Shown: positions 4,034 through 46,665 of the stretch, piece by piece
How positions within the stretch are numbered: position 1 is the first letter of the stretch
Layout of the letters: each line of letters opens with the position of its first letter
Source of the DNA: Phycisphaerae bacterium
GTDB lineage: Bacteria; Planctomycetota; Phycisphaerae; Phycisphaerales; SM1A02
Direction of reading: 5' to 3'
Length of the DNA: 64,000 nucleotides
Assembly: GCA_034439815.1 (NCBI GenBank)
Contig: JAWXBD010000173.1
Location: 1,874-65,873, forward strand
Made by a program: the position numbers and the translations under genes
Notes under the pieces: generated by a model
Databases searched by the model: none
Seen by the model: only the letters and a program-made list of their open reading frames with translations
Told to the model about the DNA's origin: nothing

Positions 4034-5155
4034 ATGATCGACCTTCGTAACGCCATCAGCCGAACCGCCGTCGTTGTTGTCGCCTGTACCCTCGCGTGCC
4101 CCACCGCGTCAGGGCAGGAAACGCCTCCCGCGAAGCTCCAGCCGGCACCAAAGGCGGAACCTGCGAAGCCCGAGGTGCCGTTGCTCTCGATCGGCGACAA
4201 GGCCCCCCCCTTCGACATCGAGCACTGGATCAAGGGCGACCAGATCTCGGAGTACCCGCCGGGCAAGATCACCGTGATGGAATTCTGGGCGACGTGGTGC
4301 GGACCGTGCAAGGTCGGCATGCCGCATCTCAGCGAGATGCAGGAGCGCTTCCGCGATTACGGCGTGCAGTTCATTGGTGTGTCCGATGAGAAGCTTGACA
4401 CCGTCAGTGCGTTCGTCGCAAAGCCGGAATGGGACGCGAAGATGCGTTACACCGTGGCGACCGACCCCGACAGGAGCACCTATACGTCGTTCATGACCGC
4501 GGCCCGCCAGAGCGGGATCCCGACGGCGTTCGTCGTCGGCAAGCAGGGCATTATCGAATGGGTCGGCCATCCCACGAACCTCGACAAGGTGCTGGACGAG
4601 ATTGTCCACGACAAGTGGGACGCGGCTGCGTTCAAGAGCAAGTTTGACGCGGAAGCCAGGGCTGAAAGTGAATGGCGCATCCAAGGCGCGAAGATCAAGG
4701 AAGCGCAGCAGGCGGGCGACTGGAACACAGTCATCGCCATCTACGACGGCATCATCGAGAAGAATCCTGACAACGTCGGCGTTCACCTGCAGAAGATGCA
4801 GGTGTGCCTCATGAAGGCCAACCGGCCGGACGACGGCTACGCCATCGCAAAGGAGCTGGCGGACAAGTCGCAGAACAATCCGATGGTCCTGAATCAGATC
4901 GCGTGGACGCTCGTCGATCCGAAGGCGCCGATCACGCAGCGGAATTATCCCCTCGCCAAGACGATCGCCGAACAGGCAGTCAAGGCGAGCGACAGCAAGG
5001 ATGGCCCGATTCTCGACACGCTCGCGCGCTGCTACTGGGAGATGGGCGACAAGGCGAAGGCCATCGAGATGCAGAAGAAGGCCGTCAGTCTCACCGAAGG
5101 CCCGATGAAGGCGCAGATCGCCGAGACGCTCGAGGAGTATGAAGCGGCGAAGTGA
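4034..5155 (+). CDS. secreted thioredoxin-like (TlpA/ResA-type) thiol:disulfide oxidoreductase with a C-terminal TPR-like region
   Basis: The N-terminus has a signal-peptide-like stretch (TAVVVVACTLACPTASGQE). The active site is WATWCGPC. The helical repeat tail reads ...LARCYWEMGDKAKAIEMQKKAV. An AGGAG-like RBS lies upstream. Confidence 0.85.
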   Translation: MIDLRNAISRTAVVVVACTLACPTASGQETPPAKLQPAPKAEPAKPEVPLLSIGDKAPPFDIEHWIKGDQISEYPPGKITVMEFWATWCGPCKVGMPHLSEMQERFRDYGVQFIGVSDEKLDTVSAFVAKPEWDAKMRYTVATDPDRSTYTSFMTAARQSGIPTAFVVGKQGIIEWVGHPTNLDKVLDEIVHDKWDAAAFKSKFDAEARAESEWRIQGAKIKEAQQAGDWNTVIAIYDGIIEKNPDNVGVHLQKMQVCLMKANRPDDGYAIAKELADKSQNNPMVLNQIAWTLVDPKAPITQRNYPLAKTIAEQAVKASDSKDGPILDTLARCYWEMGDKAKAIEMQKKAVSLTEGPMKAQIAETLEEYEAAK

Positions 5156-10439: not shown

Positions 10440-12617
<2,178 letters not shown>

Positions 12618-43053: not shown

Positions 43054-44514
43054 TCATTGGCGTTCGATCGTCCCCAGGTCGACGACCACGCGGTCGTAAC
43101 GATAGAAGTCGACGTTCAGGTGATCGGCATTGACAAACGTCAGCACCACGCAGTTCGCGCGCGTCCCGTCCGCAAACTGAAAGTCGCCCATGTGCGGGCC
43201 GGCATAGCGGCGGTTGTCGTACTCCTGCGCGTGAAAGTGCACGTGAAAGAGACTCGTATACAGCGCGTCCATCAGCGCCTGCGGCGATTCATATCGTTTG
43301 TCATTGGCGCGCGAACGGCTTGGGTATTCCACCAGATCGAATCGCCCGCGCGCGTCGAGTTGCAGCACACCGCCGTACTCCGTCGACGTATCAGCAAGGT
43401 CGCGGTCCGCGACAGCGAAGAGGTGCGCCCGCACTTCCGGAACGCGCAGCGCCTCGGTCAGCAGCAGCATCGCGGCGCGATCACCCCAAGTCAGCTTTTT
43501 GGAAACGACTGCGAGCCGCTCGCTGAACATGCCATCCAGTCCGCGATTGAAGCCCTCGAAGTCCGGGCTGTAGATCGGCCGCCCTGTGCCGCCCGTCGCA
43601 ACCGTGATCTGCTCCTCAATCGCCTCGTCGCTCATCGTGAACACCGCGGGCTGATGGCGGGCCGCGGCCGCGGCGACAGGCACGTCGCGCAGCTCGACGG
43701 CGGCGCGGCGCTCCGCCGGAATCTGCGCGATTGCCGCCTTCGCTGCGCTCCAGAACGCCTCGTTCTTCGGAGTCCGCAGCGAGCGCAGCCAGAGAATCTC
43801 TTCGCGGTTCCTCGGCAGAACGCCAAGATCCACCACGCCCGCGCGGAGATCGAGCAGCATGGCGTCCTTTCCCAGCGCTGACTCATCGGCGAGGATCGCA
43901 CGCAGCCGGTCTTCCTGTCCTTCAAGCAACAGAAGTTCCCAGCAGCGTGCCCGCAGGTTGGACTGCGTGATAGGGTTCGCGGTCCGCATCGCTTCGAGCA
44001 GTGTGTCGACGATGCGGTCCTCCCCGTGGAGCGTGGCGAGGGCGAGCCGTTCCGGCCGCTCCTTTCCGAGTGTCGCCCATGCACCGAGCGGTGTCGCCCA
44101 GGCGCGGATGAGCGTCGGTGTCATCTCGATCCAGTGATCCGCGGCGATGCGCTCGCAAAGCTCGCGCCGCCATTCGAGCGCCTCCATCTTTGGGAGATGC
44201 AATTGAAGTGAGTCGCTCAGCCCCTGCGGATCAATTTCGCGCAGCCGCGCGTATGCCGCCCGGCGAGCGTCGATGACGTAGTTGGGCGAGACAACGATGC
44301 GGCGCAGTGCCTGGCGATACTTCGGGTCCTGTCCAAGCCGATCGCCCGCGGCCATGGCTGCGAGATAGTCGCGGCCTGGCCGACCCGGCTCACCCAGGAC
44401 CGCGATCGGATTATCGATCGTCGGCGTCGAGCAGCTGGACAGATGCATGAGCGCGTACGCGAGCACGAAGGTGGAAAGCACGCCAAGCGGCACGGTACGG
44501 AAGGGCTTCTGCAT
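43054..44514 (-). CDS. hypothetical lipoprotein with a possible JAB/MPN-like C-terminal domain
   Basis: I chose the start at 44514 (MQKPFRTVPLGVLSTFVLAYALMHLSSC), which gives a lipobox-like LSSC. The C-terminus reads EYGGVLQL...HVHFHAQEYDNRRYAGPHMGD. The Arg-rich extension of the tracked ORF is rejected. Confidence 0.6.
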   Translation of the reverse strand: MQKPFRTVPLGVLSTFVLAYALMHLSSCSTPTIDNPIAVLGEPGRPGRDYLAAMAAGDRLGQDPKYRQALRRIVVSPNYVIDARRAAYARLREIDPQGLSDSLQLHLPKMEALEWRRELCERIAADHWIEMTPTLIRAWATPLGAWATLGKERPERLALATLHGEDRIVDTLLEAMRTANPITQSNLRARCWELLLLEGQEDRLRAILADESALGKDAMLLDLRAGVVDLGVLPRNREEILWLRSLRTPKNEAFWSAAKAAIAQIPAERRAAVELRDVPVAAAAARHQPAVFTMSDEAIEEQITVATGGTGRPIYSPDFEGFNRGLDGMFSERLAVVSKKLTWGDRAAMLLLTEALRVPEVRAHLFAVADRDLADTSTEYGGVLQLDARGRFDLVEYPSRSRANDKRYESPQALMDALYTSLFHVHFHAQEYDNRRYAGPHMGDFQFADGTRANCVVLTFVNADHLNVDFYRYDRVVVDLGTIERQ

Positions 44515-44606
44515 CGGGGACCACTGAACAATCAGAGGAGGCGGATAGGGATCTCGTCGAACATTGCGTGTTGGTCTGACGGGGCGGTCCCGTATTATCA
44601 AAGGAA

Positions 44607-44972
44607 ATGCCGAATCGCACTCGACACAGCCTGCCAATTGCTTCGCCCCCACTTGCTTCGACCGGCACCGAAACCGTGTTGACCGCGACCGTCAGGGGCG
44701 GCGGCTGTCCGGCCAGCCCCGAAGCCAGCCCGGAAGCCAACCCGGAACTAATCGAGCGCGTCCGAACCATCTTGGATCTGATCCGCCCGGCCGTGCAGGA
44801 TGACGGGGGCGACGTTGAGCTGGTCGATGTCTCGCCCGACGGGCTGGTGCGGGTCCGGTTTCACGGGGCATGCGTCGGGTGTCCATCAAGTTCGATCACG
44901 CTGCAGACGGGGATTGAGCGGAACCTGCGCGACCATGTGGCCGAGGTCACGAGCGTCATCGCGATCCCGTGA
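44607..44972 (+). CDS. NifU C-terminal domain (Nfu-type) Fe-S cluster scaffold/carrier protein
   Basis: The C-terminal 75 aa LIERVRTILDLIRPAVQDDGGDVELVDV...VRFHGACVGCPSSSITLQ fit the NifU/Nfu CxxC domain. The start position is uncertain: the N-terminal roughly 45 aa are low complexity and include a 12-nt x3 repeat. Confidence 0.75.
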   Translation: MPNRTRHSLPIASPPLASTGTETVLTATVRGGGCPASPEASPEANPELIERVRTILDLIRPAVQDDGGDVELVDVSPDGLVRVRFHGACVGCPSSSITLQTGIERNLRDHVAEVTSVIAIP

Positions 44973-45055: not shown

Positions 45056-45282
45056 CAGAGCGCGTCTACGAGAATTCCCTTCCACCAGCCGCAACCCTCG
45101 GCTACGCTCTGCCTCGACGACTGTACTCGCAGGCTGCGGTCACCGCCCGATGGGCAAACACCAGTGGCCAATCGCGGAGGACAGTCGTGCTGGTCGATGA
45201 TGGGTCGCCGCTCTGCGACCTGTCGCCGCCGAGCAGGCGACCCTCGCAAAGACGCGGGGAGAACAGGCAGGAGGTCCTGGCG

Positions 45283-45516
45283 ATGCTGGTCATCACACGC
45301 AAAGAAGGCGAAGAGGTCATCATCGGCGACCCCGCGGCGCCGATCGGTATCGTTCGCATCGCCACTATCAAAGGGGACCGCGTCCGGATCGCATTTGAAT
45401 TCCCGCGCGAGGTCCCGGTGCATCGGCGCGAAGTTGCGGAGCAGATTCTGTCCGCCGAGGCAGCGCAGGCCCAGATCATCGGATCGATTCGACCGGCGAC
45501 GGGCGAAGCAACCTGA
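45283..45516 (+). CDS. csrA: carbon storage regulator (translational repressor CsrA)
   Basis: 77 aa. MLVITRKEGEEVIIGD...VRIAFEFPREVPVHRREV, collinear with CsrA/RsmA. GGAGG RBS 8 nt upstream. The 238-aa tracked ORF is an upstream in-frame extension through repeat DNA. Confidence 0.93.
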   Translation: MLVITRKEGEEVIIGDPAAPIGIVRIATIKGDRVRIAFEFPREVPVHRREVAEQILSAEAAQAQIIGSIRPATGEAT

Positions 45517-45543
45517 CGGGCGACGGGCACCGAGCGGCCCGTT

Positions 45544-45595
45544 TCAACAGGCACCTGCAACGGGCACTTGCAACGGGCACTTGCAACGGGCACTT
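45544..45595. repeat. 13-nt tandem repeat (gcaacgggcactt) x3 plus one degenerate copy, just downstream of the csrA stop
   Basis: Direct reading of tcaacaggcacct gcaacgggcactt gcaacgggcactt gcaacgggcactt. Confidence 0.95.
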
Positions 45596-45610
45596 GATCA
45601 CCAGACGGTC

Positions 45611-45641
45611 CTCCCCTCAGCGGGGGGATCGTTTTTCGTTT
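45611..45641 (+). terminator. candidate intrinsic terminator of csrA
   Basis: A short GC stem (ctcccc / gggggg, loop tcagc) followed by atcgTTTTTcgTTT. Confidence 0.5.
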
Positions 45642-45664
45642 GAAGCGAACGAGTCGAATTGCCG

Positions 45665-46118
45665 CGCATGAAAAGGCCCCGGTCTTGGGTTGCAAGACCG
45701 GGGCGTTGCTTCTGTCGCGGCGAATCGATTGGCTATCCATGCCTGTCGCTTCGCCGCCCGAGCCGTGCCGCCTATCCGTAGCGGGCTCGGTCGCACAGCC
45801 GGGAAAAGGCCCCACGGCGCTTCGACCTCGAAAACTTCGAAGAGGAAGAAGCGTCGTGAAGTCGGATGTGCGGCGGTCGCTCACTCCGTCGCAGGGAACT
45901 CCTGTCCGCCGTCCTTGGCGGGCGCTTGTTCCGCTCATCCGCACCCAGAAACCGTTCGCCCGTGTGGAGAACGGCAATGGGTGCTTCCCTGCCCGGAAGC
46001 CGTCACCGATCCTTGGCGACGGCCGACGGGCGAATGTCCTGGCGAATTGCGGAGAGATCGGTCGGGATCCGTCCGCAGCGTGTCGTTCGATCGGTGCCGT
46101 TCTACTGACTTCCTCGCG
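45665..46118 (-). ncRNA. candidate structured non-coding RNA or mraZ 3' UTR with multiple GGA-in-loop hairpins (CsrB/Rsm-like decoy hypothesis)
   Basis: About 440 nt with no protein-like ORF in any frame. It ends in a strong minus-strand terminator. By eye there are 14 GGA on the minus strand against 8 on the plus strand. Several GGA sit in hairpin loops (AAGGAC, AAGGAUC, UACGGAUAG, AUGGAUA). The region is convergent with csrA. Confidence 0.3.
45677..45703 (-). terminator. intrinsic terminator (minus strand)
   Basis: 10-bp stem ccccggtctt/aagaccgggg with a 7-nt loop. On the minus strand it is followed by ccUUUUcaug. Confidence 0.65.
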
Positions 46119-46598
46119 CTACTTCGCCGCCGCGTCCGTGCGGCGGCGATCGGCGAGAGCTTGCCTCGCTCGTCGCCACACATCGGCTTGAGAGGGCTGC
46201 AGCGCCTGCTGCTCAGCCTTCCATGCCGTCGGATCACAGAGCTCCAGGTGATCCCGAACACCCAAAATCATCACACTCCCGGAGAGTCCAAACGCCTGAA
46301 GCAGCCGGTCTGGAATCCGTACCCGGCCTGCACCGTCGATCGGCAGTCGAGCGGCCTGCGAAAAGATCAGCCGTTCAAACTGCTGCATGTCTTCGTCACC
46401 GAGAAGCGATCCGCCCAGGGCCGTCGAAAGCTCCTGGAACGTCTTCTCGGGCCAGAGCCAAAGGCTGCCGTTCGAACCCGGGGCTGCGATGAGCGCTTCG
46501 CCGTGAAGCTCCGGCCGCAAAACATCGCGGAGTTCCGCGGGAATTGCGAGGCGTTGCTTCGGATCGAGGGAATGCTCATACTCACCGAGGAAGAACAC
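46119..46598 (-). CDS. mraZ: transcriptional regulator MraZ
   Basis: Two SpoVT/AbrB-like halves with DxxxR motifs (LDPKQRLAIPAELR and IDGAGRVRIPDRL). I chose the GTG at 46596-46598, which gives VFFLGEYEHSLD and matches the canonical MraZ N-terminus (MFxGxxxxxxD). The tracked start at 46646 would put the putative MraZ boxes inside the CDS. Confidence 0.88.
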   Translation of the reverse strand: MFFLGEYEHSLDPKQRLAIPAELRDVLRPELHGEALIAAPGSNGSLWLWPEKTFQELSTALGGSLLGDEDMQQFERLIFSQAARLPIDGAGRVRIPDRLLQAFGLSGSVMILGVRDHLELCDPTAWKAEQQALQPSQADVWRRARQALADRRRTDAAAK

Positions 46599-46630
46599 AC
46601 GACACCTCAGTTCTGACAAGTGGAAAAGTA

Positions 46631-46665
46631 ACCCACTCTGCCCCACCTTTCAACACTTCTCCCCA
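46631..46665 (-). promoter_or_regulatory. putative MraZ operator: three TGGGG/TGGGT direct repeats in phase (10- and 20-nt spacing) upstream of mraZ
   Basis: The minus-strand sense reads TGGGGagaagtgttgaaaggTGGGGcagagTGGGT, the complement of 46661-65, 46641-45 and 46631-35. It lies 33-67 nt upstream of the proposed GTG. E. coli MraZ binds TGGGN direct repeats with 10-nt periodicity. Confidence 0.45.

Follow-up and report, generated by a model that had tools for sequence, protein, structure and literature searches.

A conserved structured RNA with CsrA-type loops between mraZ and csrA in the Phycisphaerales, a candidate CsrA decoy

A non-coding segment between mraZ and csrA

What occupies the long segment that separates mraZ from csrA in a Phycisphaerae genome, and is it related to the CsrA protein encoded right beside it? 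The question is raised by contig JAWXBD010000173.1 (assembly GCA_034439815.1), of which a stretch of 64 kb (here called the window) was analyzed. An earlier reading made from the letters alone (the sequence-only reading) had placed mraZ, csrA and the segment between them (45665-46118) correctly, and had proposed that the segment was either a Csr/Rsm-like decoy RNA or a 3' untranslated region (UTR) of mraZ targeted by CsrA. We find that the minus strand at 45670-46080 (ca. 410 nt) very probably encodes a conserved structured RNA with CsrA-type loops. Binding of CsrA by this RNA appears likely from its sequence, and we lean, with less assurance, toward its acting as a decoy made together with mraZ.

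Conserved linkage and A(N)GGA loops across the order

Relatives were collected by a scan of one genome per species, which gave 80 loci with MraZ proteins that are 58 to 89% identical; linkage and motifs were counted on ca. 75 distinct Phycisphaerales loci, i.e., 75 distinct gaps. In every locus with enough flanking sequence, csrA is the next gene after mraZ, either convergent with it (gaps of 330 to 635 nt) or co-directional (350 to 770 nt from the mraZ stop to the csrA start). The gap is therefore never short (330 to 770 nt overall). In about half of the clades (L013 to L085 compared with the window), csrA faces the other way with respect to mraZ and the RNA, yet adjacency is always kept; what is selected seems to be proximity, not co-transcription.

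The gaps share a particular kind of hairpin. Counting strictly (a stem of at least 4 pairs including 3 G-C, with A(N)GGA within a loop of 5 to 9 nt), we found 238 such hairpins on the mraZ strand of the gaps (6.2 per kb) and 5 on the opposite strand (0.13 per kb), compared with about 0.3 per kb in 330 kb of flanking sequence. All 75 gaps contain at least one and 71 contain at least two, and the share of ANGGA motifs presented in such loops is 57% in the gaps versus 12% in the flanks. The commonest loops, mostly hexaloops, are AAGGAU (53), AAGGAC (33), AUGGAC (19) and ACGGAU (17), and the loop is kept while the stems that carry it differ completely between clades (cgcc/ggcg, gggcc/ggccc, gagcc/ggcuc, caacuc/gaguug, ggguc/gaucc). 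The CsrA motif defined in Salmonella by cross-linking and immunoprecipitation sequencing (CLIP-seq) is AUGGA or ANGGA in apical loops (PMC5207318), and at the sequence level the gap loops match it. The strict detector is tuned to GC-rich genomes and is not transferable, as it misses Escherichia coli CsrB, whose stems are only 2 to 3 bp long. Two ANGGA hairpins found elsewhere in the window, at 10947 and 11014, lie inside a long open reading frame (ORF) and look like chance occurrences.

By alignment, the RNA could be followed within the window's clade. Searches for homologues beyond it with nhmmer (single sequence and profile) and with a covariance model of the 5' domain (R1) gave only 12 alignable sequences; in other clades this model gave weak matches that, although they fall mostly in the mraZ-csrA gap, do not count as evidence of homology. 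Once the window's own clade is left, nothing but the A(N)GGA loops is conserved throughout the order. A metagenome scan with the invariant 19-mer CGGAGTGAGCGACCGCCGC returned 26 loci (L086 to L111), of which three are real (two identical to L010 and one near L002). The remaining 23 fall by chance in unrelated contigs of high GC, exact words of 19 nt not being specific at the size of that database.

Not a protein gene, a known family, a repeat or the csrA leader

The sequence-only reading had seen no protein-like product in the segment, and this holds. The ORFs of the region have no Pfam match, and indels show no bias toward preserving a frame (40 of 145 have a length that is a multiple of 3). 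The gap sequence is identical across four independent assemblies with no gene called there; the only gene call within the gap in the assemblies looked up is one of 82 aa in L005, which has no Pfam match and is missing from the identical L004. By reading frame, indels and domain matches, the region thus gives no indication of a small protein gene, conserved or otherwise. Rfam 15 at the gathering score gave no match, to an unrelated family or any other, in the window or in 18 related loci, and at E values up to 10 the interval 45400-46300 gave only unrelated weak matches (E > 1). The covariance models of CsrB, CsrC, RsmX, RsmY and RsmZ did not reveal homology either. The RNA is single copy within the window and always lies between mraZ and csrA, i.e., it does not behave as a dispersed repeat of the REP (repetitive extragenic palindrome) or MITE (miniature inverted-repeat transposable element) type. 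Where mraZ and csrA are co-directional, a strong intrinsic terminator is located past the GGA hairpins, 250 to 400 nt past the mraZ stop and 100 to 300 nt before the csrA start. Because this terminator precedes csrA, we consider the RNA a unit separate from the csrA leader.

Covariation and strand

Taken alone, the window sequence is clearly structured, with minimum free energies (MFE) at z = -5.2 (minus strand) and -6.7 (plus strand) relative to dinucleotide shuffles, yet it tells neither the strand nor what the GGA triplets mean. The sequence-only reading had counted 14 GGA on the minus and 8 on the plus strand, which is right, and had seen in this a modest enrichment, which is not significant: shuffles of the minus strand carry 12.0 +/- 2.4 GGA, and 23% of them have at least 14. 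GGA triplets wholly within the hairpin loops of the MFE structure do exceed the shuffles (4 versus 0.57 +/- 0.73, about 1 in 200). The raw GGA count was dropped as an argument because it is not above shuffles; loop presentation and conservation count instead, and it is the comparison of relatives that decides.

Both conservation and covariation turned out to be strong in the relatives. The structure alignment (A4) contains 12 sequences of the window's clade, on which RNAalifold predicts 50 pairs, with 92% of the paired cells pairing. Compensatory changes affecting both sides were found at 22 of the 50 pairs, compared with 10.7 +/- 1.9 in column shuffles (0 of 500 reach 22) and with 4 to 10 in slid controls, in which the partners were moved by 1 to 3 columns. 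Most of them sit in the 5' hairpin P1, in hairpin H2 (loop AAGGAUC) and in the terminator (Table 1). The strong minus-strand terminator that had been recognized by eye is indeed there. Of the five hairpins that had been folded by hand, four (H2, H4, H7 and H8) are located where they had been drawn and recur in relatives, and H2 and H4 belong to the measured consensus structure. The fifth, GGGUGC/GCGCCC at 45920-45946, is not conserved; in relatives its GGUGC pairs with an upstream GCACC.

We assign the RNA to the mraZ strand because four signs point there. The A(N)GGA loops are found almost exclusively on it (238 versus 5, as above). T-runs follow the terminal hairpin on this strand in both gene arrangements. 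Gap stems contain 91 G-U pairs versus 52 A-C mismatches, while the flanks have 170 versus 160. Finally, the orientation of the RNA relative to mraZ never changes, unlike that of csrA. These signs also bear on the idea that there is no RNA gene here at all, and that the gap holds DNA palindromes (REP-like or protein-binding sites), a decayed dcw remnant or a small protein gene. The folding energy, which is equally low for both strands, would suit palindromic DNA, and high-GC sequence does yield long spurious ORFs. This explanation is nevertheless extremely improbable, given a single-copy, syntenic and non-dispersed element with strand-specific loops, an excess of G-U pairs over A-C mismatches, T-runs on one strand only, and neither Pfam match, frame-preserving indel bias nor gene call.

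Promoter and likely biogenesis

A sigma-70-like promoter pattern (TTGNNN-N16-18-TANNNT) precedes mraZ in all of 79 distinct loci, as TTGCAA or TTGAAA, a spacer of 16 to 18 nt, and TAAAGT, TATTCT or TACTTT. In 74 of the 79 it is overlapped by adjacent GTGKKG repeats, which in the window read GTGTTG, GTGGGG and GTGGGT at 10-bp spacing. We take them to be MraZ boxes, repeats of this form being those of MraZ operators. Within 150 nt on either side of the mraZ stop, the promoter pattern was found in 0 of 78 loci; as far as a sigma-70-like pattern can tell, the RNA is not free-standing in the way of genes with a signal-controlled promoter of the GacA/UvrY type, and mraZ has the only promoter found. 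Nor is there a terminator between mraZ and the RNA in the window's clade. Because it has no sigma-70-like promoter of its own and keeps a fixed orientation to mraZ, the RNA is most likely, judging from the sequence, the 3' part of the mraZ transcript, perhaps processed.

The RNA might also be an independent small RNA (sRNA) gene with its own promoter, recognized by an alternative sigma factor or weakly by sigma-70. It would still be a CsrA decoy, and only its biogenesis and regulatory input would differ. Two observations point this way. The first 40 to 130 nt past the mraZ stop are not conserved, and the conserved core begins sharply at P1. Moreover, a terminator-like hairpin separates the mraZ stop from the GGA hairpins, 21 to 39 nt past this stop, in L045, L049, L050, L051, L058, L072 and L077 (in the L045 clade, ccgucgC..GCGgcgg followed by UUUGAUUC). 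In this clade of lower GC, the only one with such a hairpin, either an independent gene or read-through might account for the RNA. We regard an independent gene as rather unlikely, since the pattern that is absent from all 78 mraZ ends finds every one of the 79 mraZ promoters, and since about half of the clades have a csrA that is inverted with respect to mraZ but none has such an RNA.

The same fixed orientation and adjacency in all loci, together with the lack of a promoter-like site between mraZ and the RNA, would equally suit a cis-acting mraZ 3' UTR, in which CsrA binding controls the stability or decay of the mraZ mRNA and the RNA is a target rather than a decoy. One GGA hairpin even overlaps the mraZ stop in the window. 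However, 5 to 9 loop-presented sites are far above what known CsrA target mRNAs need. Moreover, by the known mechanisms of CsrA, a 3' location cannot block translation initiation, and the mraZ 5' leaders have no conserved GGA hairpin. We consider a purely cis-acting role unlikely; besides, an abundant RNA with so many sites would titrate CsrA anyway, which makes this explanation overlap with a decoy made with mraZ. The two options put forward by the sequence-only reading, independent decoy and mraZ 3' UTR, probably do not exclude each other, decoy and 3' UTR being probably one molecule.

The CsrA partner and its own leader

The CsrA encoded next to the RNA aligns to E. coli CsrA (PDB 1Y00, E = 1e-8). 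Residues L2, R6, V40, V42, H43 and R44 are identical between the two, and at L4, R7 and I47 it has the conservative replacements I, K and V, respectively, i.e., the RNA lies beside a cognate CsrA whose RNA-binding surface appears, from the alignment, to be intact. A search for homologues of this CsrA found only Phycisphaerales-type proteins, with at least 68% identity.

The csrA gene has a GGA hairpin of its own, which contains its Shine-Dalgarno sequence (Table 1). Nearly all loci show covariation in the stem that closes this loop, with conservation of the ribosome-binding site GGCAGGAGG itself. Such an arrangement is typical of CsrA autoregulation, for which the hairpin is a likely site, and it suggests that the encoded CsrA reads GGA loops as its relatives do. 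In co-directional loci, further AUGGAU-loop hairpins are present upstream within the csrA leader.

Anatomy of the RNA

The elements of the RNA are listed in Table 1, in the order of transcription of the minus strand, together with the flanking genes and signals. In total, the RNA contains 13 GGA and 7 ANGGA in 411 nt, of which 3 to 7 are in hairpin loops, depending on stringency.

Table 1. Coordinates of the RNA elements and of the neighboring features in the window
Feature	Coordinates	Strand	Remarks
mraZ promoter and operator	46625-46656	-	-35 TTGAAA, 17-nt spacer, -10 TACTTT; three overlapping GTGKKG repeats
mraZ coding sequence	46119-46598	-	159 aa; Pfam MraZ, E = 3.8e-20
Hairpin cgccgccgc-ACGGAC-gcggcggcg	46125-46148	-	Overlaps the last mraZ codons; CAGGAC in L001, missing in some relatives
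Linker from mraZ stop to RNA core	46081-46118	-	Poorly conserved; no terminator, no promoter-like site
P1, 5' hairpin of the conserved core (GCGGA..UCCGC)	46049-46076	-	Two GGA; compensatory changes at 6/10 pairs
Near-invariant UUCGCCAGGAC	46036-46046	-	
H2, gccgucgcc-AAGGAUC-ggugacggc	45999-46023	-	A(N)GGA loop, 9-bp stem; compensatory changes at 3/7 pairs
CAGGGAAG, then stem GCACC/GGUGC around an insert of variable length	45941-45992	-	Stem with insert, 45941-45984
Conserved GCGGAUGAGCGGAAC	45928-45942	-	Two GGA
H4, ccgcc-AAGGAC-ggcgg	45906-45921	-	Compensatory changes at 1/4 pairs
26-nt near-invariant block UGCGACGGAGUGAGCGACCGCCGCAC	45868-45893	-	7-bp stem, loop GAGUGAGCGA
Variable hairpin	45808-45863	-	Length and sequence differ in every relative
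Conserved CCCGGCUGUGCGACC leading into H7	45758-45803	-	
H7, ccgagcc..cgcu-ACGGAUA-ggcg..ggcucgg	45758-45790	-	
H8, gcggcgaa..ggc-AUGGAUA-gcc..uucgccgc	45717-45757	-	
Intrinsic terminator of the RNA	45670-45704	-	12-bp GC-rich stem (45676-45704), then CUUUUC; compensatory changes at 8/12 pairs
csrA terminator	45603-45634	+	
csrA	45283-45516	+	77 aa; Pfam CsrA, E = 2.9e-15
Hairpin cagg-CAGGAGGU-ccug	45264-45279	+	csrA Shine-Dalgarno and GGA in loop

The hairpin over the end of mraZ may be the first GGA site of the RNA, a prediction that would extend it beyond the conserved core. In L001 a tandem duplicate of the last ca. 30 nt of mraZ, CAGGAC hairpin included, is found just past the stop (4481-4645 of that locus), and P1 occurs two or three more times (by weak matches of nhmmer and of the covariance model, 4561-4644); this looks like a local duplication building extra hairpins. 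Within the core, RNAalifold pairs UCGCCAG, in the UUCGCCAGGAC region, with CUGnGCGA at 45789-45803, where no covariation was seen. In H2 the AnGGA loop is invariant and the stem covaries (U-A to A-U, C-G to U-A), and all 12 sequences have the H4 loop A(A/U/G)GGA.

The 26-nt block UGCGACGGAGUGAGCGACCGCCGCAC is better conserved than the neighboring genes and is not a standard ANGGA hexaloop. Of the 10 sequences of the window's clade, 7 share it unchanged and three differ at 1 to 5 positions, all outside the inner 19 nt. This inner part, CGGAGUGAGCGACCGCCGC, is the same in 10 of 10 species, the MraZ proteins of which are only 76 to 89% identical. This block, UUCGCCAGGAC and GCGACCG are conserved beyond what CsrA binding needs. 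Combined with a GGA density below that of the classical sponges, they would fit a structured RNA of another function (the ligand of another RNA-binding protein, a base-pairing sRNA or a scaffold), in which the GGA loops are incidental or secondary. A base-pairing role finds no help in the window, in which complements of the invariant block are no more frequent than by chance. Since across the order it is only the A(N)GGA loops that are conserved outside the window's clade, and csrA remains adjacent in all loci despite its changes of orientation, we consider such other functions quite improbable.

Gene neighborhood

The window has a G+C content of 65%, and the MraZ homologues assign it to the Phycisphaerales, phylum Planctomycetota. 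The start of mraZ at 46598 agrees with homologues and with public gene calls. Neither rsmH nor other dcw genes are found behind mraZ, whose sole downstream cargo is the RNA. The gene order flavin reductase, mraZ, uncalled gap, csrA and nifU is common to the three close relatives that were looked up. Beside nifU, an ORF of ca. 475 to 530 aa without a Pfam domain (43054-44652, minus strand, in the window) is kept in synteny in L001, L002 and L004, and in these three loci an M48 peptidase gene comes after its counterparts. The 13-mer GCAACGGGCACTT is present in three perfect tandem copies (45557-45595, plus strand), located past the csrA stop and ahead of the csrA terminator, that were not found in the aligned relatives.

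Proposed mechanism and its weighing

Multiple GGA and A(N)GGA in hairpin loops, on a non-coding structured RNA with a Rho-independent terminator, are the attributes of a sequestering RNA. From these and the preceding features we infer that the RNA is transcribed, that it binds and titrates CsrA, and that MraZ controls it. Transcription would start at the sigma-70-type mraZ promoter, overlapped by the MraZ-box repeats, and would end at the RNA's own intrinsic terminator, perhaps with later processing; the RNA possibly extends to the hairpin at 46125-46148. It would expose 5 to 7 A(N)GGA loops, among its 13 GGA, to which several dimers of the neighboring CsrA would bind. Free CsrA would thereby be lowered, being titrated off its mRNA targets as by CsrB and RsmZ, and the availability of CsrA would track the activity of the mraZ promoter. 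The Csr/Rsm-like decoy put forward by the sequence-only reading is thus supported, and of the refuting conditions listed by that reading, none of those open to computation, all of which were checked, was borne out.

Several points weigh against this picture. Only the window's clade can be aligned, and the sameness of the RNAs of other clades rests on position and motif. The raw GGA count of the window sequence taken alone is within chance, and the folding energy is blind to strand (RNAalifold, -63.2 forward and -66.2 reverse). With 13 GGA in 411 nt, the RNA has about half the density of E. coli CsrB (22 in 369 nt), and its stems are long and GC-rich, not of 2 to 3 bp. The near-invariant blocks, i.e., the 26 nt at 45868-45893 and two other motifs, are not accounted for by CsrA binding. 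As to biogenesis, the missing sigma-70-like promoter leaves room for a promoter of another sigma factor, and the terminator-like hairpins after mraZ in L045 and similar loci might separate the RNA from the mraZ transcript.

A decoy made with mraZ might be part of a wider arrangement of three parts, conserved in the Phycisphaerales, in which the division and cell-wall regulator MraZ, having lost its dcw operon cargo, drives, from an auto-regulated promoter, a CsrA-titrating RNA fused to its own mRNA. We propose this MraZ-RNA-CsrA module tentatively, as a possibility that the locus architecture suggests. If true, it would couple MraZ activity to global post-transcriptional control by CsrA, and it suggests a possible role for orphan mraZ genes located outside a dcw cluster.

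Comparison with known CsrA antagonists

A close functional parallel is CsrB/CsrC of the Enterobacteria, which sequester CsrA dimers (PMC7652899). Like them, the window RNA is non-coding, a few hundred nucleotides long (CsrB has 369 nt), contains many GGA in hairpin loops and ends at an intrinsic terminator. Unlike them, it carries its GGA about half as densely, on long GC stems and not on stems of 2 to 3 bp, and there is no similarity in sequence or to the covariance models. CsrB and CsrC are also free-standing, activated by BarA-UvrY and not located beside csrA, whereas the window RNA lies behind mraZ and beside csrA, in a different phylum. In its A(N)GGA hexaloops or pentaloops, well-formed stems and several sites per RNA, it resembles RsmX, RsmY and RsmZ of Pseudomonas and relatives, the sponges for RsmA and RsmE, to which it gives no Rfam match. 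The Rsm RNAs are shorter, about 110 to 130 nt, and are encoded by GacA-dependent free-standing genes. The structure of the RsmZ sponge was described by Duss et al. 2014 (as cited in PMC13443453).

A CsrA-binding RNA that is part of a longer transcript, as predicted here, with no promoter of its own, has parallels too. Examples of mRNA-embedded CsrA ligands are the Salmonella fim leader and the Campylobacter jejuni flaA mRNA. In E. coli, rrA, rrB and rrF are CsrA ligands that derive from read-through of rRNA operon terminators (PMC8144298). All of these are small, with few sites, and are located in 5' leaders or in the tails of rRNA operons, whereas the RNA type of the window is a conserved multi-hairpin domain of 320 to 430 nt that has a terminator to itself, follows a transcription-factor gene and is kept along with csrA. 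FliW has the same regulatory role that we propose for the RNA, that of CsrA antagonist, but it is a protein that acts allosterically on the CsrA C terminus and is encoded with flagellar genes; in the neighborhood of this locus, fliW is not next to csrA.

RNA antagonists of CsrA have been documented essentially only in Gammaproteobacteria, FliW being assumed elsewhere (PMC7652899), and CsrA is especially prevalent in Planctomycetota (PMC13443453). In the literature searched, no report came up that connects CsrA with mraZ or, for Planctomycetes or Phycisphaerae, with an RNA antagonist. The RNA is thus a plausible candidate, on sequence grounds, for the first Csr/Rsm-style decoy RNA outside Proteobacteria. 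If this is true, it would be the first Csr-type RNA antagonist outside that group and the first carried by the mRNA of a transcription factor, RNA decoys for CsrA would have arisen more than once (here in ca. 75 species of another phylum), and the locus would offer an entry point to CsrA regulation in a poorly studied phylum. On the best reading, this RNA stands outside the CsrB and Rsm families but shares their kind of function, under another regulatory input and in a phylum new to such RNAs.

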